NCBI GenBank assembly: GCA_023245335.1
Contig: JAHFKK010000001.1
Span: 1,164,053 to 1,218,111, forward strand
DNA: 54,059 bases
Direction: 5' to 3'
Source: Candidatus Gottesmanbacteria bacterium
GTDB taxonomy: Bacteria; Patescibacteriota; Microgenomatia; UBA10105; UBA927
Shown here: one piece after another, positions 4,899 to 54,059 of the stretch
Layout of the letters: the number at the start of each line of letters is the position of its first letter
How positions within the stretch are numbered: the first letter of the stretch is position 1
Made by a program: the position numbers and the translations under genes
Notes under the pieces: generated by a model
The model's database searches: none
What the model was told of the DNA's origin: nothing
The model's input: only the letters and a program-made list of their open reading frames with translations

Positions 4899-4928
4899 TC
4901 CTGCGGAGCAGGATCTGGCTTCGCCAGA
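4899..4928 (-). repeat. 30-bp double-hairpin element, copy D
   Basis: Minus strand TCTGGC-GAA-GCCAGA-TCCTGC-TCC-GCAGGA; two perfect 6-bp stems. Confidence 0.8.
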
Positions 4929-5086
4929 GACAGGAAGCGCAAAACCGGATACATCTCGGCCTCAAAGTTAATTCTACAACCATATCATTCTCGATAAAAC
5001 TTGATACTTTTTAGCCTAGTTCGTTACATTATTATATAGTTTTGGCCTCCTTGACACATCTTACATAACTCCCGTAGTCTGGTTAT

Positions 5087-5425
5087 ATGGACGTTTCTCT
5101 GCCCGCCATCGATGCATTTGTCGAAGAACTCATGAAACAAAAATTCGGAGATTCACGCCCTGACGAAGCCACATTTACTGCTATTAAACGGGAATTAACC
5201 GAAAAACTTAACCAATACCTCACACTCCGGACCATAGAAATGATTTCGGATACGAACCCTGAAGCAATCACACAACTTTCTGATCTCATCAAAACCAATC
5301 CCACTCCAGAACAAGTGAATACGTTCATCGGTAACTACGTGAAAGAGCCGGACATACTCGTTGCCCAAATTTTTGCTGATTTTCGCTCGCTGTATCTTGG
5401 CGTAAAGCCAGAACAAAGCAATTAA
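5087..5425 (+). CDS. Hypothetical helical protein (DUF5663-like)
   Basis: 112-aa ORF ending 6 nt before the giant gene; family resemblance recalled, not searched. Confidence 0.7.
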   Translation: MDVSLPAIDAFVEELMKQKFGDSRPDEATFTAIKRELTEKLNQYLTLRTIEMISDTNPEAITQLSDLIKTNPTPEQVNTFIGNYVKEPDILVAQIFADFRSLYLGVKPEQSN

Positions 5426-5431
5426 TCGCCT

Positions 5432-8400
5432 ATGCCAGACCCGATACCAAACCAGGAAATACCCTCGTCATTGAATATCGTCGTGGGTGAAACACCGCTC
5501 TATCTCAAAACGCCACAAAAAATTGGCGGGCAAGAGGTCACTTCACTCATTATCCAGGCTACCGATAAACGAGGTGCCGCAGGAATTGATAGCTCTGTCT
5601 TACTTGTCAAGGAACCCAGCCGCAAAAAGGGCGAAGAAGGGGCTATCATCGATAAACCCGTTAATCATGTCGATCCCATGGATCAAATGGCTTGGGATAA
5701 AGTATCCGGCGTCCAGTGGACCGATGAGACAGGAGTTTCCCATATCATACCCAAAGAAGAATTGAGTTTAAATCAACCGGTACCCGATGCAGAAGAAATG
5801 ACAGGAACGGAACCAAAAGCAGAAGGCGCTGACGGCCTCTCTATGACAGCAAATGAAAAACAAACAGAGCCAGCTCAGCCTGTCGCCGGATCTCTATCGG
5901 AAGCACCAGTTCAGGAACCCCCCACAGAAAAACCGGCCGAAACAGTAGGATCGCAATTCGAAACTCAACAACCAGAAGTGATGCCGGAAGCAACTCCTCC
6001 CGTAGAACCTTTACCAAAGGTAACACCCGCCAAAGCCCGCGAGGTGCTCTCTTCGCTCACTGAGGATCCCAATACGATAACCATCGTTGGCCTCCGTGCG
6101 TACGAAACACGCGCTCTCGATCTTGCTGATCGGGCGATGCAACGCTTGGGAACACCACGGGTGACCGAACGCGCAGAATCGGCCAAAAACCTCTGGGACA
6201 AAACCAAAGATGTCGCAATGGGTCTCGAGCACGTACTCGTCGATACCGTCTGGAAGCAAAGTATCGGCGGCCTCTACTTCCATGAGCGTGCCCGGCAATA
6301 TTACCTGGGTATGATACGTGCCGCGGAAACGCCGTTTGCCGAACAATCCATACGGTTAGCAGAAGCCAGAGCTACCGACCGATATAACAAAAAACTTGCG
6401 GATGCCAATTTCCTTAGCCGCGTAGGCATGAGAGGAATTGAGGCATTACGGGACACGTTGGGTATGCGCACGGCCATCCAAAATATGGCGCTAGAAGAAA
6501 TCGGCGTCATGAAGACAAACGGAGAACTCCAGGGCGCTGAAACATTTGAACGCGAGGCAAAAGCAGTCCGTGTACGATTCGGCCAGGATTTCGACCGCGC
6601 GGATCAGTTCGTGCGCACCCAGCTCGGTGAAAAACTCGAGATACTGGATGCCACAAAAGAAGAACACAAACCATTGGTAGAAGGCATACAAGGATTACTC
6701 AAACAGTACGCAACAGGCGAGATAACTGACCGCGCTGAATTTGATAAACGAACAAAAGAATTCTTCAATGCGACCCTCAAAAATGTCCGGCCGGATATTT
6801 TCGCTGAGGCAGAATTATATAGTTCGAGTCTTTTTGATGCGGCAGAAACACTACGAAATAAAATGTCGCATGAGGCAGGACTTGCCAATATAGACGAAGC
6901 GTTATCCGGCATGCAGATCCGTCTTGGCCTGGGACAAATGGGTGAGGTCACAAGTCTTGAACCGACAGCTGTCGAACGTGGCGTTAGCCGAGTCCGCGAA
7001 GTGACTGACTGGCTGAACAAAAATAACGTCATCGTGCCGATGGTGTTTAACGAAGTCACGATTGGATCGGGTGTTGCCATTGCCCTGTCCGCAGTGAAGT
7101 TCCTGCAGACCGCGCCGTTCCGTGCTGTTGCTGGTATCACCGGACCATTAGGCAGTATCACCGGAGGCGCACTTGCGGGAGGCATATTTGCGGGATGGCG
7201 CGAATACGGACAACTGCAAAAAGATTACCTCACCCATCTACGCGAACGCGAAACAGGCACGCAATTTACCGAATCTATGAAACGACGTGCTTGGTTTGAG
7301 CGATTGAGTGTGAAACAGCGAAGCGCGAATGAAATGATGACCACCATGCAAAACGCGCTCTACGAGACTCTACCCGAAGGGAACATTGGAGACACGTTGA
7401 AAATAAATCTGACTGATGATGAACTCCGGACGACATTTGCGACCATCGCCGATCTGCAATCGCGCAAGGCAGTGAGCGAGACCGGTCCAAAAAGAATCGG
7501 TTTGATACAGTATTCCAGCCGTGAGGCGATAGAAAGTGAGCGAAGCGCTCTCGATATCGTCGCCAATAAGGCACTCACTGATCTTGACACCTACCTTTCC
7601 TCGCACGCAGATCAGGCGTCGAGTGTCCTGGGCGGCAACACATTCTCCGAATTTATGGTCAAGCTCACCACCAATCAAACACAGGTTTTGAAGCAAGGAG
7701 TCGGAGTCATCGACAGTTTCGACGATCCGGTCAAAGCGACGCTGGGCATTGTTTCCCAACATGCGCCGGAAATTGACCTCGTCAAACGCCGCTGGCCGTT
7801 TGCGGGACGGGAAACAACCGGAGAAGAAAAAGTGATGGGGATGGATGCAATACTTATGGAATTCAATAAAGAAGCCCGTTCAGAAGCCATCAAATATGGT
7901 GTCAGAGCCGGAGTCATCGGAGCGGGAGTCGGTGCGGTACTTCACCTTGGGGATCTTCATGCCGCCCCGGATGCTTCACATGTAGGAGGAGTAGCTTCCA
8001 CCGCATCAATCGGTCATGCAGGGAAAGAAATAGGAAATATCGCTTCTTCTTCGACCACGGTCCCGCCCGAGGGTCTAACGACCGCGGCACAGAAAGTCAT
8101 AGAAATCGGCCCACCCCATCAGGTGATGGTTGATGGAATTACCGGGGCCAACAACGAACCTTTGAGCGCGATGTTACCGCCCGGTTATAATTTCCAACAC
8201 CTCATAGTCGGAGGTCACATGGATAAGTGGGAGCTCATCGGACCGGATAAGCAAGTCATCCTAAACAATCTAAGCTTCAGTCCCGACGGGACACTTGCTA
8301 ATGCTACCGAAGTTCAACAACAACTCGCCGCCCATGGTTTATCAATGACAACAAACGCCTTGCCTGCCGAACAGATTGCAGGTGCGGCAGCAAGTGGATC

Positions 8401-15478: not shown

Positions 15479-16490
15479 GGCTGCTTAACGAGTATCCGAG
15501 TGTAGCAGCCGATCAATCCGGCGAGAAGCGCTCTTTGCGCCGTGTACGAATAAGTACCAGCCTCGCCGGATAGGCGGGACTGAAAAGGCGCAAAGCAAGC
15601 TCTGACGGATTGGTGGTTTTTGTTGAAATATCAACCTAAATAAGTATAGTTAGCACTTTTAAATATAGACTGATAAATATCAATATGTATCTTCGGAAAT
15701 GAGTCCCGCCCTGTCTTACGGCAGGAAGGCGGGCGGGATTCGTTTCTGGAGGTAACTCTCCGGATACGGATGATTTGTAGGAAGAACAAATGCGTTCTCG
15801 CTCTATCAACTTCATCCGTAGCACTTTAACAAGGCATACAGGGGAACAGTTTCTGACCCGATTCACATCGGGACAGAAATACTGTCGCCTGTCCTCTTGA
15901 GGACAGGGAAACGACACATGTTGTGTTGCTTCCCGCGTTCATACAGTGGACAGGAACTTAGTTTGCAGCAATGCGGACTAACGATTCTCATATTCCGGCG
16001 CCTTTCGCCCGTCCCTACATATCATTGCGGTATTAAGGGGCGTCGAAACGGACCGTTGGGACATGAAGATCATCTCTCAATAATATAGTTAGAAGCGTCA
16101 GCCAAAGGCTGATCGGCCTCTGACCGAGAACTGCGGACTATACGGACGTGCTTACTCCTCTTTGATGTCGTCTCTTACGGCGACCCGCCGTTGAGGCGGG
16201 AGTGTGTTTCATTTCCCCACTTATGTACAGAATATAGATTCTGTATGTATTGGGGAAATGAAATAAGAATATATTAAGAAATTTTGGGGGAAATTAAGAA
16301 GAAAAATAACGCGTCTTTGGGGGAAAATCTTGGGGGATTTCGAAAAAGCATGCGAACGGCATGTTTTGCGACGCAAAATATCCAGATTGTTTGTTTTATT
16401 TAAACAATAATCCGGATTATACCCGAAACACCACTCCCCTCCCGACTTGGGAGACCTGGGGGTGTTAAATAAAATCGTCCCGCACCAACG
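15479..16490 (+). ncRNA. Candidate large structured ncRNA(s) or structured leader, family unknown
   Basis: More than 12 stems of 6-14 bp, GNRA loops (GTAA, GCAA), + strand G-U pairs, a pseudoknot; no credible ORF. Confidence 0.45.
16098..16127 (+). repeat. 30-bp double-hairpin element, copy A
   Basis: TCAGCC-AAA-GGCTGA-TCGGCC-TCT-GACCGA. Confidence 0.75.
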
Positions 16491-25926: not shown

Positions 25927-25964
25927 TTCTTTTGTCAACTTTCCCAATTGGGAAAATTAACAAA
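25927..25964. repeat. Palindromic site 1 downstream of the PaaX/Cas2-like gene
   Basis: 34-bp palindrome at 25931-25964 (15/17 pairs) with perfect core TTTCCCAATTGGGAAA; 25927-25956 matches 26629-26658 at 27/30. Confidence 0.9.
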
Positions 25965-26013
25965 TTAATTTATTTTCCCTTCACCAAAATATATTTATAT
26001 ATATCTTTATATA

Positions 26014-26610: not shown

Positions 26611-26640
26611 ATTTTATGTGCTTCAGAATTCTTTTGTCAA
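26611..26640 (-). promoter_or_regulatory. Promoter of the PaaX-like gene
   Basis: Minus strand TTGACA-N18-TAAAAT; the -35 lies inside palindromic site 2. Confidence 0.6.
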
Positions 26641-26672
26641 TTCTACCAATTGGGAAAAATTACAAAAGAATT
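26627..26672. repeat. Palindromic site 2 upstream of the PaaX/Cas2-like gene
   Basis: 46-bp palindrome (19/23 pairs) centred on CCAA|TTGG. Confidence 0.9.
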
Positions 26673-26725
26673 TGTGTCTTCATATGACTTGACGCGGACA
26701 CCGTGTATCTGCCTATACTGGATAT

Positions 26726-29495: not shown

Positions 29496-29525
29496 TCGGC
29501 CAAAGGCCAATCCGCCTCTGGCGGA
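29496..29525 (+). repeat. 30-bp double-hairpin element, copy B (just past the lepA stop)
   Basis: TCGGCC-AAA-GGCCAA-TCCGCC-TCT-GGCGGA. Confidence 0.75.
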
Positions 29526-47087: not shown

Positions 47088-47978
47088 TTAAAATCCTAAA
47101 CTCGCAAACGGCAACCGGCTCATGATTTGGATCGTCCGAATAAGGTATTCTAGAAAGAGCCAGTCTATCCATGCCACCGCTTGTCCCGCGTATAACACAA
47201 AAAATCCGAGCAAAACAGTCACCCAACCTGCCAACGTCACTGGCGATATAACCCAACCGATTGCTAAATTGGTTAACGGAGAGACAAGGGATAACCGATG
47301 AAAATACAACATCGTCAACGGTATAGTAAATACTTGTGCAGCAAGGGTAAGACGCACGTTTTCTTTCATGAGAGACCATACCGGTGACGCCACCTTCCCC
47401 ACAATATTGTTCACCCAAAACACATAAGGACGTTGAAAAGAATTCTGCAAATCCGCCGCGGCGGCGAATGTTTTGTTTGCATCTTTGCGTTGACCACTAA
47501 ACAAAATAATTCCGAGGGTCGCTAGCGCAGAAAGCTGGAAAGAAATTTCAAAAAGCCAATTAAAGTGAATAATGAGCATAATGCCTACCGTGAGTAGTAA
47601 TGTGAGAAACGCCCAGTATTGACGCCCAAAAAGAACGGCTATAAGGCTCAAACTCCCCATAATGGCGGCCCGGATAATGCTCGATGCCGGACCTACAAAC
47701 CATACGAACCAGATGATGAGAAGAAGCGTTAATGCCGTTGCAACGCGCTTCCCGACGACCGGAAGGAGCATCTTCCCTACAAGATCTTCCATGATGGTAA
47801 TATTCATGCCGGATAAAGCGATAATGTGGAGCGTACCACTGGTCACTAATGCATCATAAAAATCCCCAGATAAGGAAGTTTTTGTGCCAAAAAGCAAGCC
47901 GGCAAGTAAACCCGCATGCGGCTCGGGGAGAAGCTGATTGATGATAGACGTCAGTCCGGAAACGGTAAACGGAACCAT
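47088..47978 (-). CDS. comEC: ComEC membrane (Competence) domain protein
   Basis: GTLHIIALSGMN, SIIRAAIM, SFQLSALAT, AQVFTIPL. Confidence 0.93.
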   Translation of the reverse strand: MVPFTVSGLTSIINQLLPEPHAGLLAGLLFGTKTSLSGDFYDALVTSGTLHIIALSGMNITIMEDLVGKMLLPVVGKRVATALTLLLIIWFVWFVGPASSIIRAAIMGSLSLIAVLFGRQYWAFLTLLLTVGIMLIIHFNWLFEISFQLSALATLGIILFSGQRKDANKTFAAAADLQNSFQRPYVFWVNNIVGKVASPVWSLMKENVRLTLAAQVFTIPLTMLYFHRLSLVSPLTNLAIGWVISPVTLAGWVTVLLGFFVLYAGQAVAWIDWLFLEYLIRTIQIMSRLPFASLGF

Positions 47979-47980
47979 AT

Positions 47981-48631
47981 CTATAGGACAAGCTGGTCTT
48001 TTATCTTAGTAAATAGCGCCTGACCTATGACCTTTTTCTCAACCAGCTCATCGAGTCTCATATATGGTCGCCCGGAAATAATCTTCCCGGCCGTTACCGG
48101 ACCCACTCCGGAAAGTGATTCAAGTTCAGATTGAGTCGCTGCGTTGATATTGACAACCCCTGCCGGTGCAATACTTCCGGATGATCCCGCCGAAGAAGGT
48201 TGACCAGTAGCTACGGCCTCATCACCAAGAGCTGGAATATAGAGTTTGGCGCCGTCGGAAAGCTTGGCAGCACGATTAAGTAAACGCGAAATAGCGGCAA
48301 TGTCGGCGCGTTTCGATAATCCCCCCGCAGCCGTTATACCATTATCCACCCGACTTCCCGCAGGTAAACGATAGACACCGGGCCTTATAACCGCTCCTTC
48401 GACGTCAACCGTAAGCATCTGCACCTCGGAACTTCCCGTCGCTTCCGTCGTAATTCCGGAGATTGGTGAACCCGAAGAAAATATGATCGGCGTAGAAGAC
48501 TGATACGATTTGATAAATATCGTTACAGATAGACCTACAAAAATCAGACTGATGAATCCGAGAATAATTGGCGCATGATACACTCGCCAGAGCATTTCTG
48601 GAGTGATGACACGATCATCATCCTCTACCAT
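47981..48631 (-). CDS. comEA: ComEA DNA receptor (TM, SLBB, HhH)
   Basis: VDVEGAV..PGVY.L..GSRV, VNINAAT..EL..L.GVGP..A..II. Confidence 0.95.
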   Translation of the reverse strand: MVEDDDRVITPEMLWRVYHAPIILGFISLIFVGLSVTIFIKSYQSSTPIIFSSGSPISGITTEATGSSEVQMLTVDVEGAVIRPGVYRLPAGSRVDNGITAAGGLSKRADIAAISRLLNRAAKLSDGAKLYIPALGDEAVATGQPSSAGSSGSIAPAGVVNINAATQSELESLSGVGPVTAGKIISGRPYMRLDELVEKKVIGQALFTKIKDQLVL

Positions 48632-48704: not shown

Positions 48705-51281
48705 CTAAATGACAAAGTTGATTACCTTACCCCGGACGAAAATAACTTTCCGTATTTTTGATTCGCCAAGAAATTTCTGTACTTTTTCCGATAATCGGGC
48801 TTTAGCCTCAACTTTTTCCTGCGAACTTACGCTTTCTATATCTATCTGCATCGAATCCCGAAGCTTACCGTTAACTTGAATGACAACGGTCACTGTATCC
48901 TCGACAAGATAGTGTTTATCATACCCGGGCCATGCTTGTTGATGTATGGACCAAAGCTGTCCAGACGCTTCGCGTCGAGAATCCGCGGCTTTGAGCCGGG
49001 ACCAGAGCTCTTCGGTGAGATGTGGCGCATAGGGCGCCAATACAAGCAGAAATGTTTTTAGCAATTCAGGACTTAAGGTGCCATTTTCATCGGCAACCAG
49101 GTTAGTAAACTCCATCATGGCTGCAAGCGCGGTATTGTAGTGACGGCTCTCCGTGTCCTCTCCTACCTTCTTTACCAACTTATGTATTGCTTTGATACAT
49201 TTGTCAGAATCCTTGCTATGAGTGCCAGGTTCTAAGGAGATTGTCGCCATGCGCCAAATGCGTCCGACCCATCGCGACATGCCTTCCATGGCGGAATCAC
49301 GAAAATCTCCACCATCAGAAAAGGGTCCCATGAACATAAGATACATCCGAAGGGCATCTGTTCCGTATAGTTTGATATACTCATCAGGATTAACTACGTT
49401 GCCTTTACTCTTACTCATCTTCGCGCCGTCTTTAATAACCAGTCCATGCGCATAAAATTCCGGAAACGGCTCTTCCCAGCCCGAGGCTGGTCCGCCTTTG
49501 GCGGAAAAATCGAAATATCCCCAGTCACGTAAACACATCCAGACGAATCTGCTGTACATGAGATGAAGCACGGAATGTTCAGCTCCCCCGGTATACATCG
49601 TGACCGGTAACCAGTTTTTCGTGATCTTCGGATCAAACGGTTGCGTATCCGCAGTCTTGGAATTGACAGAGGGATAGCGTAAAAAGTACCACGAACTATC
49701 TAAAAATGTATCAGAAACGTCTGTCTCACGGACGGCCTTACTACCACAACCGGGGCATATTGTTTCATAAAATTCTTTATGCTTCGCAAGAGGTGCGATA
49801 CCATCATCTCCGGGTTTGTAGTCTTTAATATTTGGTAATTCTACCGGCAAATCTTTCTCAAGCACTGCATACCATCCCGGCATATCATGACGCTCCCCTT
49901 TACCATTCTTCTCGCACAAAACGCAATGAATCATGGGAATGGGCGGACCCCAGTACCGCTGCCGGGAGATAAGCCAGTCTCGCAAATGATACATCGTCAC
50001 GCGCTTGCCCCAGCCCTTTTTCTCCAAATGATCCATCATAAGACCTATCGACCGTTTGATATCAATACCGTCCAAGAAGCCCGAATTGATCATTTTACCT
50101 TCATCTTCCTGCACTTGTTCAGGCTTGGTGATAGGACTCGTATCTCCGTCTGCCCCGACAACAACTCGCTGTACAGGAATTTTCATGACTTCCGCAAACT
50201 CAAAGTCTCGCATATCGTGACCAGGCACACCGACCACAGCCCCGGTCCCGAACTCCATAACCACAAAATCCGTCACATAAAGCGGCATTTTATATCCTGT
50301 AAGTTGATTGACACAGTACAATCCTGTCGCTACTCCCGTCTTTTTCCGACCCCGCGCTATCCGATCCTCATGCGAAGCTTTTTTAGTTTTTTCTACGTAG
50401 CGGCCTACTACAGCAGCCTGATCTTTTTTTATCACCGCTTGTATCTGACTGATAAAGGGATGCTCAGGTGCTAAAACGACGAATGTAGCACCGAAGTTGG
50501 TATCCGGTCTTGTAGTAAAGCACGTTATCTCTCCTATTCGCTTTCCTTTTTCATCAACGACCGGATAAGTGATATTTATCCCCTCTTTTTTCCCGATCCA
50601 GTTCCGTTGAGCGATCAAAACCTTTTCTGACCATTTCAGGCTCGATATATTTTCCAGCAGTTTTCCCGCATATGCGGTAATTCTAAAGAACCATTGTTCT
50701 AGTGCTTTCTTTTCTACTAAATTCCCGCAACGTTCACACTTCCCATCTATAACCTGCTCATCTGCCAGTACCGTCTTATCTGCAGGACACCAGTTGACTT
50801 CTGCTTTGGACCTATATGCCAATCCATGTCTGAACATCTGGACGAATAGCCACTGGGTCCACCTATAGTAGTCAGGGTCGTACGTTTGAACCGTGCGCTT
50901 CCAGTCATACATACATCCGATCATATGGAGCTGCCGGTAGAAATTTTCCTCGCTGCGCTTTGCCTGCTCCAATGGATGCGTCCCAACCTTCAGTGCATAA
51001 TTCTCACTATGTATGCCAAATCCATCAAGTCCTATGGGCTCAAAAACATCATATCCCTGCATCCGTTTATACCTCCCGTAGATATCTGTACCGGTAAACG
51101 CATACATATTCCCCACATGTAACCCTTCCGCTGAAGGGTACGGGAACATCATAAGGTTATAAAATGGCTTTCTGACAGTCTCCATATCCAATGTGTTGAG
51201 ACTCTTATCGTGCCAAATTTCCCGCCATTTAGCCTCAACTTTCTCGTGAAGATAGGAATTTTTTTGCGCTGTATCGCTCAT
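48705..51281 (-). CDS. leuS: Leucyl-tRNA synthetase
   Basis: MFPYPS..GLHVGN, WLISRQRYWG.PIP, YTGG.EH, KMSKSKGN, VIQVNGKLR. Confidence 0.98.
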   Translation of the reverse strand: MSDTAQKNSYLHEKVEAKWREIWHDKSLNTLDMETVRKPFYNLMMFPYPSAEGLHVGNMYAFTGTDIYGRYKRMQGYDVFEPIGLDGFGIHSENYALKVGTHPLEQAKRSEENFYRQLHMIGCMYDWKRTVQTYDPDYYRWTQWLFVQMFRHGLAYRSKAEVNWCPADKTVLADEQVIDGKCERCGNLVEKKALEQWFFRITAYAGKLLENISSLKWSEKVLIAQRNWIGKKEGINITYPVVDEKGKRIGEITCFTTRPDTNFGATFVVLAPEHPFISQIQAVIKKDQAAVVGRYVEKTKKASHEDRIARGRKKTGVATGLYCVNQLTGYKMPLYVTDFVVMEFGTGAVVGVPGHDMRDFEFAEVMKIPVQRVVVGADGDTSPITKPEQVQEDEGKMINSGFLDGIDIKRSIGLMMDHLEKKGWGKRVTMYHLRDWLISRQRYWGPPIPMIHCVLCEKNGKGERHDMPGWYAVLEKDLPVELPNIKDYKPGDDGIAPLAKHKEFYETICPGCGSKAVRETDVSDTFLDSSWYFLRYPSVNSKTADTQPFDPKITKNWLPVTMYTGGAEHSVLHLMYSRFVWMCLRDWGYFDFSAKGGPASGWEEPFPEFYAHGLVIKDGAKMSKSKGNVVNPDEYIKLYGTDALRMYLMFMGPFSDGGDFRDSAMEGMSRWVGRIWRMATISLEPGTHSKDSDKCIKAIHKLVKKVGEDTESRHYNTALAAMMEFTNLVADENGTLSPELLKTFLLVLAPYAPHLTEELWSRLKAADSRREASGQLWSIHQQAWPGYDKHYLVEDTVTVVIQVNGKLRDSMQIDIESVSSQEKVEAKARLSEKVQKFLGESKIRKVIFVRGKVINFVI
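48964..48998 (-). repeat. Twin short hairpins inside an apparent leuS insertion
   Basis: Minus strand CGGCT-CAA-AGCCG ... GACGC-GAA-GCGTC encoding part of RLKAADSRREASG. Confidence 0.5.
49476..49505 (-). repeat. 30-bp double-hairpin element, copy C, in-frame in leuS
   Basis: TCCGCC-AAA-GGCGGA-CCAGCC-TCG-GGCTGG = SAKGGPASGW, exactly codon-aligned. Confidence 0.85.
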
Positions 51282-51948
51282 ACTTTACTCAAGTATACCT
51301 AATACGGACTATATTTCAAGAGAGAACACGGGGACAGCGTAAACCCTTCATTCAGGACGGACAAATGCGTAAATAGGCCGCCAGAATAACTACTTACATA
51401 ACAAATGCTTACGCTCGCCGAGTGCCAATTTGTCGATACCAAAATAGTTTCATAAGACTATTCCTTTATAGGCCGATATGACGGGCCACAAAATTATTAG
51501 CACCGGTCAATAATATCTGCTAAAAGAATAAATATCTTCTCTCTCGTGGGTATTTGGCTGGTTTTTACCATAAGGATATCGAATATAACCTTTCCCAACC
51601 TCGATGTGAAACTATCATCATATTCTTTTACCCACCAATAACTATAAGATTAAGAGCAATATTACTATAGGTATAAACGATTGAAAGCCGATTCTACGGC
51701 TCCAAATGATTACCGCATATTTGTTACAGAAGTTGTACTTCGAGCAATGTTTTCAACAAATTAAAATCAATTATTATTGATTGATAGTAATGTTTGATAT
51801 ATTTATTGAAGCTAAGTATTTCTTGCGGTAATTAGTGAAATATACCTATTTCTGCACATTTAACTCAAAAAACACTTTTATAGTTCTAGTACCTAACTAT
51901 ATCAACAGCCTCTTGACAGCCTTATTAGTAATTGTATTAACTATAACT

Positions 51949-54059
<2,111 letters not shown>

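Follow-up and report, generated by a model that had tools for sequence, protein, structure and literature searches.

How does a palindrome come to stand, in frame, inside an essential enzyme? The question is raised by a stretch of 54,059 nucleotides from Candidatus Gottesmanbacteria bacterium (assembly GCA_023245335.1, contig JAHFKK010000001.1, positions 1,164,053 to 1,218,111), here called the window. Its leucyl-tRNA synthetase (LeuRS) gene contains a 30-nt double hairpin, which an earlier reading of the sequence, the original prediction, had described as a palindromic element translated into a 10-residue insert. The 30 bases are probably a copy of a small, dispersed, mobile double-hairpin palindrome. 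It is similar in kind to dimers of repetitive extragenic palindromes (REPs) or to Rickettsia palindromic elements (RPEs), and it appears to be translated; the protein seems to tolerate it and in part to have adjusted to it.

The insert in leucyl-tRNA synthetase

48705 to 51281, minus strand: LeuRS gene, 858 amino acids (similarity and Pfam domains)
49476 to 49505, minus strand: copy C of the element, a 30-nt double hairpin (sequence, shuffles, fold, empty sites in relatives)
49491 to 49505, minus strand: hairpin 1, TCCGCC-AAA-GGCGGA
49476 to 49490, minus strand: hairpin 2, CCAGCC-TCG-GGCTGG
49407 to 49421, minus strand: KMSKS motif, residues 621-625 (sequence)
49512 to 49541, minus strand: codons W581, C583 and F590, in and after helix 569-586 (alignment)

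The enzyme is similar to the LeuRS of Thermus thermophilus (1h3n, phmmer E 1.6e-192). Precomputed Pfam domains (PF00133, PF13603, PF08264 and PF09334) comprise the catalytic, the CP1 editing and the anticodon-binding domains. Both signature motifs are present, a HIGH-type HVGN at residue 55 and KMSKS at 621-625. The genome, estimated to be 98% complete, contains no second match at LeuRS level; four further matches, with 27-43% identity, are paralogous synthetases.

The minus strand at 49476-49505 reads TCC GCC AAA GGC GGA CCA GCC TCG GGC TGG. It forms two abutting perfect hairpins, each with a 6-bp stem and a 3-nt loop. The 30-mer is aligned with the codons of the LeuRS open reading frame (ORF) and encodes SAKGGPASGW, residues 593-602, 18 residues before KMSKS; the position and frame given in the original prediction hold. 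With up to three mismatches the 30-mer occurs once in the window versus not at all in 100 shuffles. The RNA fold of the insert has an energy of -18.7 kcal/mol (z -3.3), and none of 200 shuffles was as good. Perfect double 6-3-6 hairpins are present five times in the 1.55-Mb genome versus about 0.09 expected at uniform composition, and all five belong to the same family. Logan contigs from two groundwater runs (X1 record 1 and X2 record 9), possibly the source sample, cover 49250-49707 with 0 differences.

An AlphaFold2 model based on 20 orthologues had a mean predicted local distance difference test (pLDDT) score of 82.7. Helix 569-586 is followed by a coil (587-607) containing the insert, a strand (608-611) and the KMSKS loop. 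In this model, the insert lies in the coil which joins the last helix of the catalytic fold to the strand leading into the KMSKS loop. The pLDDT is below 50 at residues 595-599 of the insert, and the loop 614-628 around KMSKS is of low confidence. The alignment with the T. thermophilus enzyme stops at residue 590 and resumes at 619. Between these points the window enzyme has 28 residues versus 72 in T. thermophilus, so it lacks the domain known as the leucine-specific domain.

Filled and empty sites

The genus comprises 18 species genomes, and the LeuRS region was located in 17. The insert is absent in 14 of these 17 genes, which read WGY[LIV][DNS][FWV]^[DE]EPF (^ marks the junction), with DNA that is mostly GAT TTT^GAA GAG. 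The same ten codons as in the window are present in two other species, G002 and G004, with base changes that are described below. Excision of the ten residues from the window enzyme leaves GYFDF^EEPF. The expectation that this would be a normal LeuRS segment agrees with the 14 genus members and with the solved structure 5AH5, which is aligned as LHDLGYIEF----------DEPF (5ah5_A), an exact 10-residue gap. The insertion falls between TTT and GAA, adjacent codons in the relatives without insert, and adds 30 bp with no target duplication. The 30-mer in LeuRS is confirmed as a true insertion. Two further genes of the source genome (G000) allow the same comparison.

LeuRS: site TTT^GAA; filled in G000, G002 and G004; empty in 14 of 17
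Xer-like integrase: site GTG^AAA; filled in G000, G016, G006 and G012, partial in G014; empty in 12 of 17 aligned rows
LCP protein: site AAG^AAA; filled in G000 and G002; empty in 14

All three comparisons within the genus show exactly 30 bp added and an unduplicated target. Among the checks proposed with the original prediction were an alignment with close relatives and a mapping onto a structure. In the alignment, no same-genus orthologue has a non-palindromic segment of the same length at the site. Such a segment, mostly non-palindromic, is present only in a distant family of the same order (f2, 57-59% identity). In the structures, the insert maps to a coil in the AlphaFold2 model and to the gap in the 5AH5 alignment.

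A family of double hairpins

The copies follow the consensus TCNNNC-ARA-GNNNGA^TCNNNC-TYN-GNNNGA. A covariance model (R1) with 12 base pairs was built from 10 copies. Run on the source genome, R1 scores the 8 training copies, and no other sequence, at 33 bits or above; the next match has 23.7 bits. The window holds four of the eight, at 4899, 16098, 29496 and 49476. Copies A and B of the original prediction are indeed present at 16098-16127 and 29496-29525.

4899 to 4928: family copy TCCTGC-GGA-GCAGGA^TCTGGC-TTC-GCCAGA, 14 nt past a stop codon, 39.1 bits
16098 to 16127: copy A, TCAGCC-AAA-GGCTGA^TCGGCC-TCT-GACCGA, intergenic, 45.6 bits
29496 to 29525: copy B, TCGGCC-AAA-GGCCAA^TCCGCC-TCT-GGCGGA, 8 nt past the lepA stop codon, 44.6 bits

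Three of the eight genome copies are codon-aligned within genes: in LeuRS, in the Xer-like integrase (SAGGRSASGG) and in the LCP-family protein (SREAGSAAGR). The stems differ among the copies of the genome, with matching changes on both sides. Two single hairpins TCCGCC-CAA-GGCGGA were also seen in the genome at C12:119010 and C12:120055, 1,045 nt apart and with similar flanks (...gactatatctt, hairpin, ...); they may be members of another repeat.

The percentage of pairing in the first copy set is circular, because these copies were chosen by a hairpin scan. Six in-frame inserts were therefore considered that had been reached by protein homology: LeuRS of G002, G004 and G085, Xer of G016 and G006, and LCP of G002. 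Pairing is intact in 70 of 72 cells (97.2%) versus 22-49% in slid controls, and both sides have changed in 7 of the 12 pairs. The LeuRS copy of G002 differs from that of the window by C3G and G13C; hairpin 1, now TCGGCC-AAA-GGCCGA, stays paired at the price of a glycine replaced by arginine. Hairpin 2 varies among the LeuRS carriers in the loop only, with TTG in G002 and TCT in G004. At the Xer site, the stems vary by species (TCGGCC/TCCGCC, TCTGGC/TCCCGC or TCCCGC/TCCGAC). The LeuRS copy of G004 is identical (30/30) to both copies in its DnaJ gene. The maintained pairing is equally compatible with structural selection, gene conversion, re-insertion at a hot spot and self-templated correction of a quasi-palindrome.

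The family extends far beyond the genus. R1 matches were present in 24 of 31 relatives of the class, with a maximum of 79 strand-matches in G020; strand-matches are roughly twice the copy number, which corresponds to up to about 40 copies in class relatives. In the phylum, 37 of 151 sampled genomes had matches. An exact 24-letter pattern was found at at least 120 loci of the GTDB species collection, in many phyla. The matches listed come from many Patescibacteria groups, Omnitrophota, Planctomycetes, Verrucomicrobiota, Ignavibacteria, Bacteroidota, Prosthecochloris, Gammaproteobacteria, Myxococcota and others, and include the isolate Marivirga aurantiaca (Bacteroidota). Among them, the six positions left free by the pattern are all paired in 93 of 122 copies, with a chance of 1/4096 each. 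This is an unbiased sign of true family membership. Whole genomes have 73 strand-matches in a Planctomycetales genome, 48 in an Ignavibacteriota genome, 46 in Prosthecochloris and 11 in Marivirga.

A metagenome gave an independent view of the element. In run X4, contig depth rises from about 100 to 5,000-8,000 solely over 49471-49521, 50-80 times the flanks, so the element is very abundant across the organisms of that groundwater community. Many contigs with unrelated flanks terminate at 49476 and at 49505-49509, an independent marking of the element borders. Joints of less than 95% likeness in this run come from other organisms and were excluded, as were uncovered stretches; RNA runs, which contained at most 9% of the words, were likewise left aside. 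A blastn search of phage records gave no match to the element, and only 10 IMG/VR contigs contain the pattern; phages are no evident carrier.

Insertion context, reading phase and host proteins

Flanks, phases and ORFs were counted on a cross-phylum set of 121 copies among the matches listed. Upstream, T occupies positions -3, -2 and -1 in 63, 96 and 74 copies. Downstream, position +1 is A in 69 and G in 35, and A is present at +2 in 88 and at +3 in 62. The usual insertion context is T-rich^RAA. In this set, 42 of the 121 copies sit in ORFs of at least 200 amino acids with at least 30 codons on each side. Their phases are uneven: 31 read SAxGG-SAxGG, 7 PPKADQPLAE and 4 LRQRRIRLRRK. The bias probably arises in part from the TTT^RAA context, since an NTT^TRA reading has a stop and is impossible inside genes. 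The commonest phase encodes small flexible residues, Ser-Ala-x-Gly-Gly/Arg twice in 10 codons.

Several host proteins are known by name. The DnaJ of G004 has two identical SAKGGPASGW copies in its Gly/Phe-rich region (L036 1003-1956, minus strand), and a threonyl-tRNA synthetase (ThrRS)-like ORF of the same genome (L383) has SSKGRSASGR directly after GFYYDFDF. SAKGGPASGW was also noticed in a Gly-rich protein of G020 (L085) that resembles this DnaJ region. In LeuRS relatives, inserts are nested (SSKGRP-RPEADQPVAE-ASGW), and G075 has a 20-residue form. The LeuRS of G020 (L029/L089) carries an element copy, RPKADPPLAE, at another place, between query residues 461-467.

Further LeuRS inserts were observed beside these. 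The G020 enzyme has an open frame of about 1,000-1,060 amino acids with several inserts; one of about 45 residues is at the same junction as the window's insert, contains SGVANAPQNDVILANEVRPES and resembles a different translated repeat. Inserts at other sites were seen in G003 (L014, about 13 residues within IIRQAHDGEPSRTTRAARSGQ), in G016 (L011, RKEKSVKRGDSGPAKQDHASH), in G012 (L016, LVKLDLLDQ) and in G023 (L026, NPSFAKASEGR near the N-terminus).

History of the LeuRS insert

A maximum likelihood tree was calculated from 19 LeuRS and 846 columns, with the insert columns removed. The three carriers do not form a clade. G004 nests with G006, G012, G007 and G001 at a support of 100 in the Shimodaira-Hasegawa-like approximate likelihood-ratio test (SH-aLRT), and the starred branches force three changes. 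The immediate surroundings of the insert tell another part of the history. Gene-wide, the carrier trio shares four private nucleotide sites, all in codons -12 (Trp) and -10 (Cys); at the residue level, Phe at -3 is also private to the carriers. The median number of private sites over all 816 trios is 0. W581, C583 and F590 are the sole positions of the gene common to the three carriers and to no other genus member. By sliding identity, it is only in the stretch from about 20 codons before to 10 codons after the insert that the carriers are closer to each other than to their neighbours in the tree. A 509-nt contig from run X3 is 97% identical over 49250-49472 and then continues as an allele without insert, in which the upstream part is about 77% like the window (hand count of 30 letters).

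The wider view was based on the best 120 database relatives, of which 112 were parsed. The source labels of LeuRS proteins from relatives are Patescibacteria, Gottesmanbacteria, Woesebacteria or Beckwithbacteria. Of the 112, 80 have no insert and 32 have one, exactly +10 residues in 25 of the 32. The preceding helix has Trp in 30 of the 32 carriers versus Thr in 76 of the 80 non-carriers, and the final residue of the insert is Trp in 26 of the 32; these relatives are kin to each other, and the Trp/Thr counts overstate independence. The sister family f2 has unrelated-looking inserts of 10-11 residues at the same spot, also with Trp or Tyr. A fold signal is absent from three of its four inserts (z -0.7 to +1.4); the fourth retains a hairpin, CAGCC-A6-GGCTG (z -4.0). 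A scan of metagenome contigs for insert-bearing LeuRS DNA found one carrier among the 36 parsed of 80 loci.

The simplest account of these alignments would be an old insertion allele that decayed in some lineages, was refreshed or exchanged elsewhere by short-tract recombination, and to which the protein adapted. The alternative is a series of independent insertions followed by parallel co-adaptation.

How the insert may have arisen

The element may have arrived by hairpin- or single-strand-dependent insertion at a T-rich^RAA sequence, possibly with the help of an HUH/Y1-type enzyme. The precise insertion beside a T-run, with hairpin ends and unduplicated target, resembles HUH-type single-strand transposition. 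The translated insert would be tolerated because the junction, a surface loop, is permissive. Afterwards the hairpins may have been kept by gene conversion among copies, by self-templated repair or by structural selection. The protein would adapt by exchanging Thr for Trp in the helix before the insert and by keeping a Trp as the last residue of the insert itself, and the insert-bearing segment could pass between related species by short-tract homologous recombination. The original prediction spoke of a selfish hairpin tolerated inside LeuRS and of a route to new peptide loops. As far as the sequences tell, this reading is supported in each part. A dispersed hairpin, present in some and absent in other relatives at the same position of LeuRS, Xer-like and LCP genes, is in frame in the only LeuRS of the genome, and motifs and domains are retained; a strictly selfish nature goes beyond these observations. 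The route to new loops is supported by the 32 of 112 parsed relatives with an insert at this place and by the decayed inserts of the sister family.

A number of observations weigh against a mobile palindrome as just described. No transposition event was observed, and the copy number in the own genome is low (8). No mobilising enzyme was identified among the Y1_Tnp and small GIY-YIG genes checked. G000 has a Y1_Tnp gene (C12:905587-905880, 35 bits) within a 225-aa ORF (C12:905429-906106; L221 1342-2019, plus strand), and Y1_Tnp genes of the IS200/RAYT type are present in 24 of 31 relatives, with 1-7 each. Six Y1 loci had no R1 match above 12.8 bits, so no element flanks them. Across the 31 genomes, which are related and not independent, 20 have element and Y1, 4 the element only, 4 Y1 only and 3 neither; in these counts the presence of Y1 has no clear relation to that of the element. 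Small GIY-YIG genes were near only 3 of 125 copies among the matches listed, which indicates no link. The identical copies of G004 and the stem differences at the same site fit gene conversion or re-insertion equally. The LeuRS tree came from a "quick" search with SH-aLRT as its only support. The shared W/C/F flank could reflect co-adaptation and not co-transfer, since Trp accompanies other insert types as well. REP-type repeats are seldom so alike in different phyla, and the near-identity could point to a conserved host function instead of mobility. Translation of the ten residues, finally, is inferred from open frames.

Alternative explanations

The most substantial alternative, which we nevertheless consider unlikely, is that the double hairpin is a selected nucleic-acid signal, for example an mRNA fold by which ribosomes are slowed or RNases blocked, or a DNA site for a conserved protein, and that it spread by recruitment. 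It can coexist with a mobile origin. Copies at one gene position have changed in both arms of a stem and still pair, G002 accepts an arginine for a glycine with the stem preserved, the same sequence is maintained across phyla, and copy B and the copy at 4899 sit 8 and 14 nt past stop codons. The conserved pairing loses discriminating power because quasi-palindrome self-correction or gene conversion, as in G004, would likewise preserve it. Rfam has no family for the element, and the four copy-carrying loci gave only a tRNA match with E up to 1. Intergenic copies lack the convergent bias of terminators (tandem 42, convergent 8 and divergent 5 of 125 copies listed), and at each site most close relatives do without the element.

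That the ten residues are an adaptive protein loop of LeuRS with incidental DNA palindromy is very improbable, and as an account of the origin it is already contradicted. The Trp at the end of the insert and in the helix of most carriers, and the inserts in many lineages at this site, would suit such a loop. The same 30-mer is, however, intergenic and present in unrelated DnaJ, ThrRS-like, Xer and LCP proteins, and the DNA remains paired across very different peptides (SAKGGPASGW, SGEAGSRFAG and others). Still less credible is an untranslated element that the ribosome skips or the RNA loses. The hairpin "byp" elements of a yeast mitochondrion are a precedent for bypass, and a stable hairpin pair does lie inside the coding region here. 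Three of the 121 copies listed have an internal stop with open frames of at least 60 codons on both sides, which would suit this reading; with only these three, ribosomal bypass or read-through was rejected. The length is always divisible by three, 42 of the 121 copies are open in long ORFs, the 31/7/4 phase bias would be needless under bypassing, and the protein flank co-varies with the insert. An assembly or sequencing artefact is already refuted. Nothing supports it except that the genomes are mostly metagenome bins; the insert, with lineage-specific differences, occurs in the genomes of three species and in one more metagenome contig, two independent run assemblies have it too, and the element is present in an isolate genome.

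The mobile palindrome remains the probable origin of the LeuRS insert. A bolder generalisation is put forward tentatively, at slightly under even confidence: the copies may belong to a family of mobile double hairpins, minimal at 30 bp, that spans phyla and has no earlier description. Its members would insert at T-rich^RAA without duplication, keep their palindromy by concerted evolution and repeatedly place stereotyped loops in essential proteins, some of them built into the fold. If this is true, 10-residue Ser/Ala/Gly loops (or PPKADQPLAE) are written into proteins of Patescibacteria, Planctomycetes, Chlorobi, Ignavibacteria, Bacteroidota and others. The near-identity across phyla would then mean either that one trans-acting enzyme is shared widely or that DNA often passes between phyla in groundwater and sediment communities. 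Proteins are known to gain new loops from palindromic repeats inserted in frame, though rarely. Here the stages are traceable in an essential enzyme, from the empty site to the perfect element, compensatory drift, nested insertions, decayed remnants and helix changes, and many uncultivated lineages display them. With only 30 bp, no known tag or partner enzyme and nearly constant sequence in distant phyla, the element is a tractable case for studying the movement of the smallest mobile DNAs and the frequency with which they give rise to new protein features. It also accounts for unusual Ser/Ala/Gly inserts of 10 residues, and for spurious short ORFs, in the annotation of metagenomes.

Other features of the window

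By eye, the two genes directly downstream of LeuRS (47088-48631, minus strand) resemble the competence proteins ComEC and ComEA; DNA uptake would agree with recombination in the history of the insert. A 741-aa frame at 51835-54057 (plus strand) runs past the window end. Its N-terminus looks like an integrase SAM-like domain (by eye), and it continues into a very long collagen-like Gly-X-Y repeat (repeat scan D1/D2). An AT-rich pair of 44-45-nt repeats at 25927-25970 and 26627-26673, 702 nt apart, has CCAATTGG in each member. The two are 82-84% alike in both the direct and the inverted sense.

Comparison with known systems

Bacterial LeuRS without the leucine-specific domain, such as 5AH5, are close known counterparts of the enzyme. 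The alignment is continuous over residues 10-858, with the same motifs and GY(I/F)(E/D)F^(D/E)EPF at the junction. The window enzyme differs by the ten additional residues and by the Trp and Cys in the preceding helix.

Among repeats, the intragenic REPs with GTAG/CGTC tags are described as dispersed GC-rich palindromes of 20-40 bp, often paired at a distance of 1-2 bp, as in O. terrae and Wolbachia (Di Nocera et al. 2013, PMC3733652). Some are in frame in genes of known proteins including tRNA synthetases and are thought to be neutral in loops (PMC3733652). The element resembles them as a short, GC-rich, dispersed palindrome in dimer form that is sometimes in frame. Its hairpins abut at 0 bp, in contrast to the 1-2 bp of REP dimers. 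Neither a GTAG nor a CGTC tag is present in the 10 aligned copies; the element starts with TC and ends with GA. It has 8 copies here versus hundreds, and about a third of the 121 copies listed are intragenic. In six Y1 loci, no RAYT (Y1 transposase) gene is flanked by the element. The element sequence crosses phyla, whereas REP families are lineage-specific.

RPEs, in the work of Ogata et al. from 2000 and 2002 (cited in PMC3733652), are reportedly in-frame palindromic repeats in genes for functional proteins, to which they add peptide segments at the surface. RPE-1 has about 100-150 bp and is confined to Rickettsia. The element is likewise in frame in LeuRS, Xer-like, LCP, DnaJ and ThrRS-like genes and adds peptide segments to them. 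It differs by its 30 bp and its many phyla, a distinction drawn on size and lineage.

GC-rich double-hairpin elements are also reported from mitochondria, for example the sponge elements named RHEs (PMC2800124) and mobile DNA of yeast mitochondria (PMC4478555). The element shares with the mitochondrial double-hairpin elements (DHEs) and GC clusters the two stem-loops, the dispersal, the presence/absence differences and a conserved structure with variable stems. The mitochondrial elements, to which those of Allomyces belong, are organellar, of variable length and mostly in non-coding DNA or variable regions of rRNA. We know of no sequence relation between them and the element.

Transposition by HUH enzymes of the IS200/IS605 type proceeds without target duplication, with end hairpins and a short specific adjacent sequence; the known minimal ends are longer than 30 nt. 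The element inserts without duplication and has T-rich 5' and RAA 3' flanks in the 121 copies listed, features that may correspond to these; its near-symmetry prevents the assignment of an orientation. It differs by its length of 30 nt and by the finding of no element-linked transposase in the Y1 loci. From miniature inverted-repeat transposable elements it is distinguished by the absence of a target-site duplication in the LeuRS, Xer and LCP comparisons. The literature searched, with partial coverage, had analogues but no description of the element, and an exact-string search gave only unrelated primer matches. Palindromic repeats inserted in frame are a known kind of event; what seems to be new is the family of this element and how widely it is spread.

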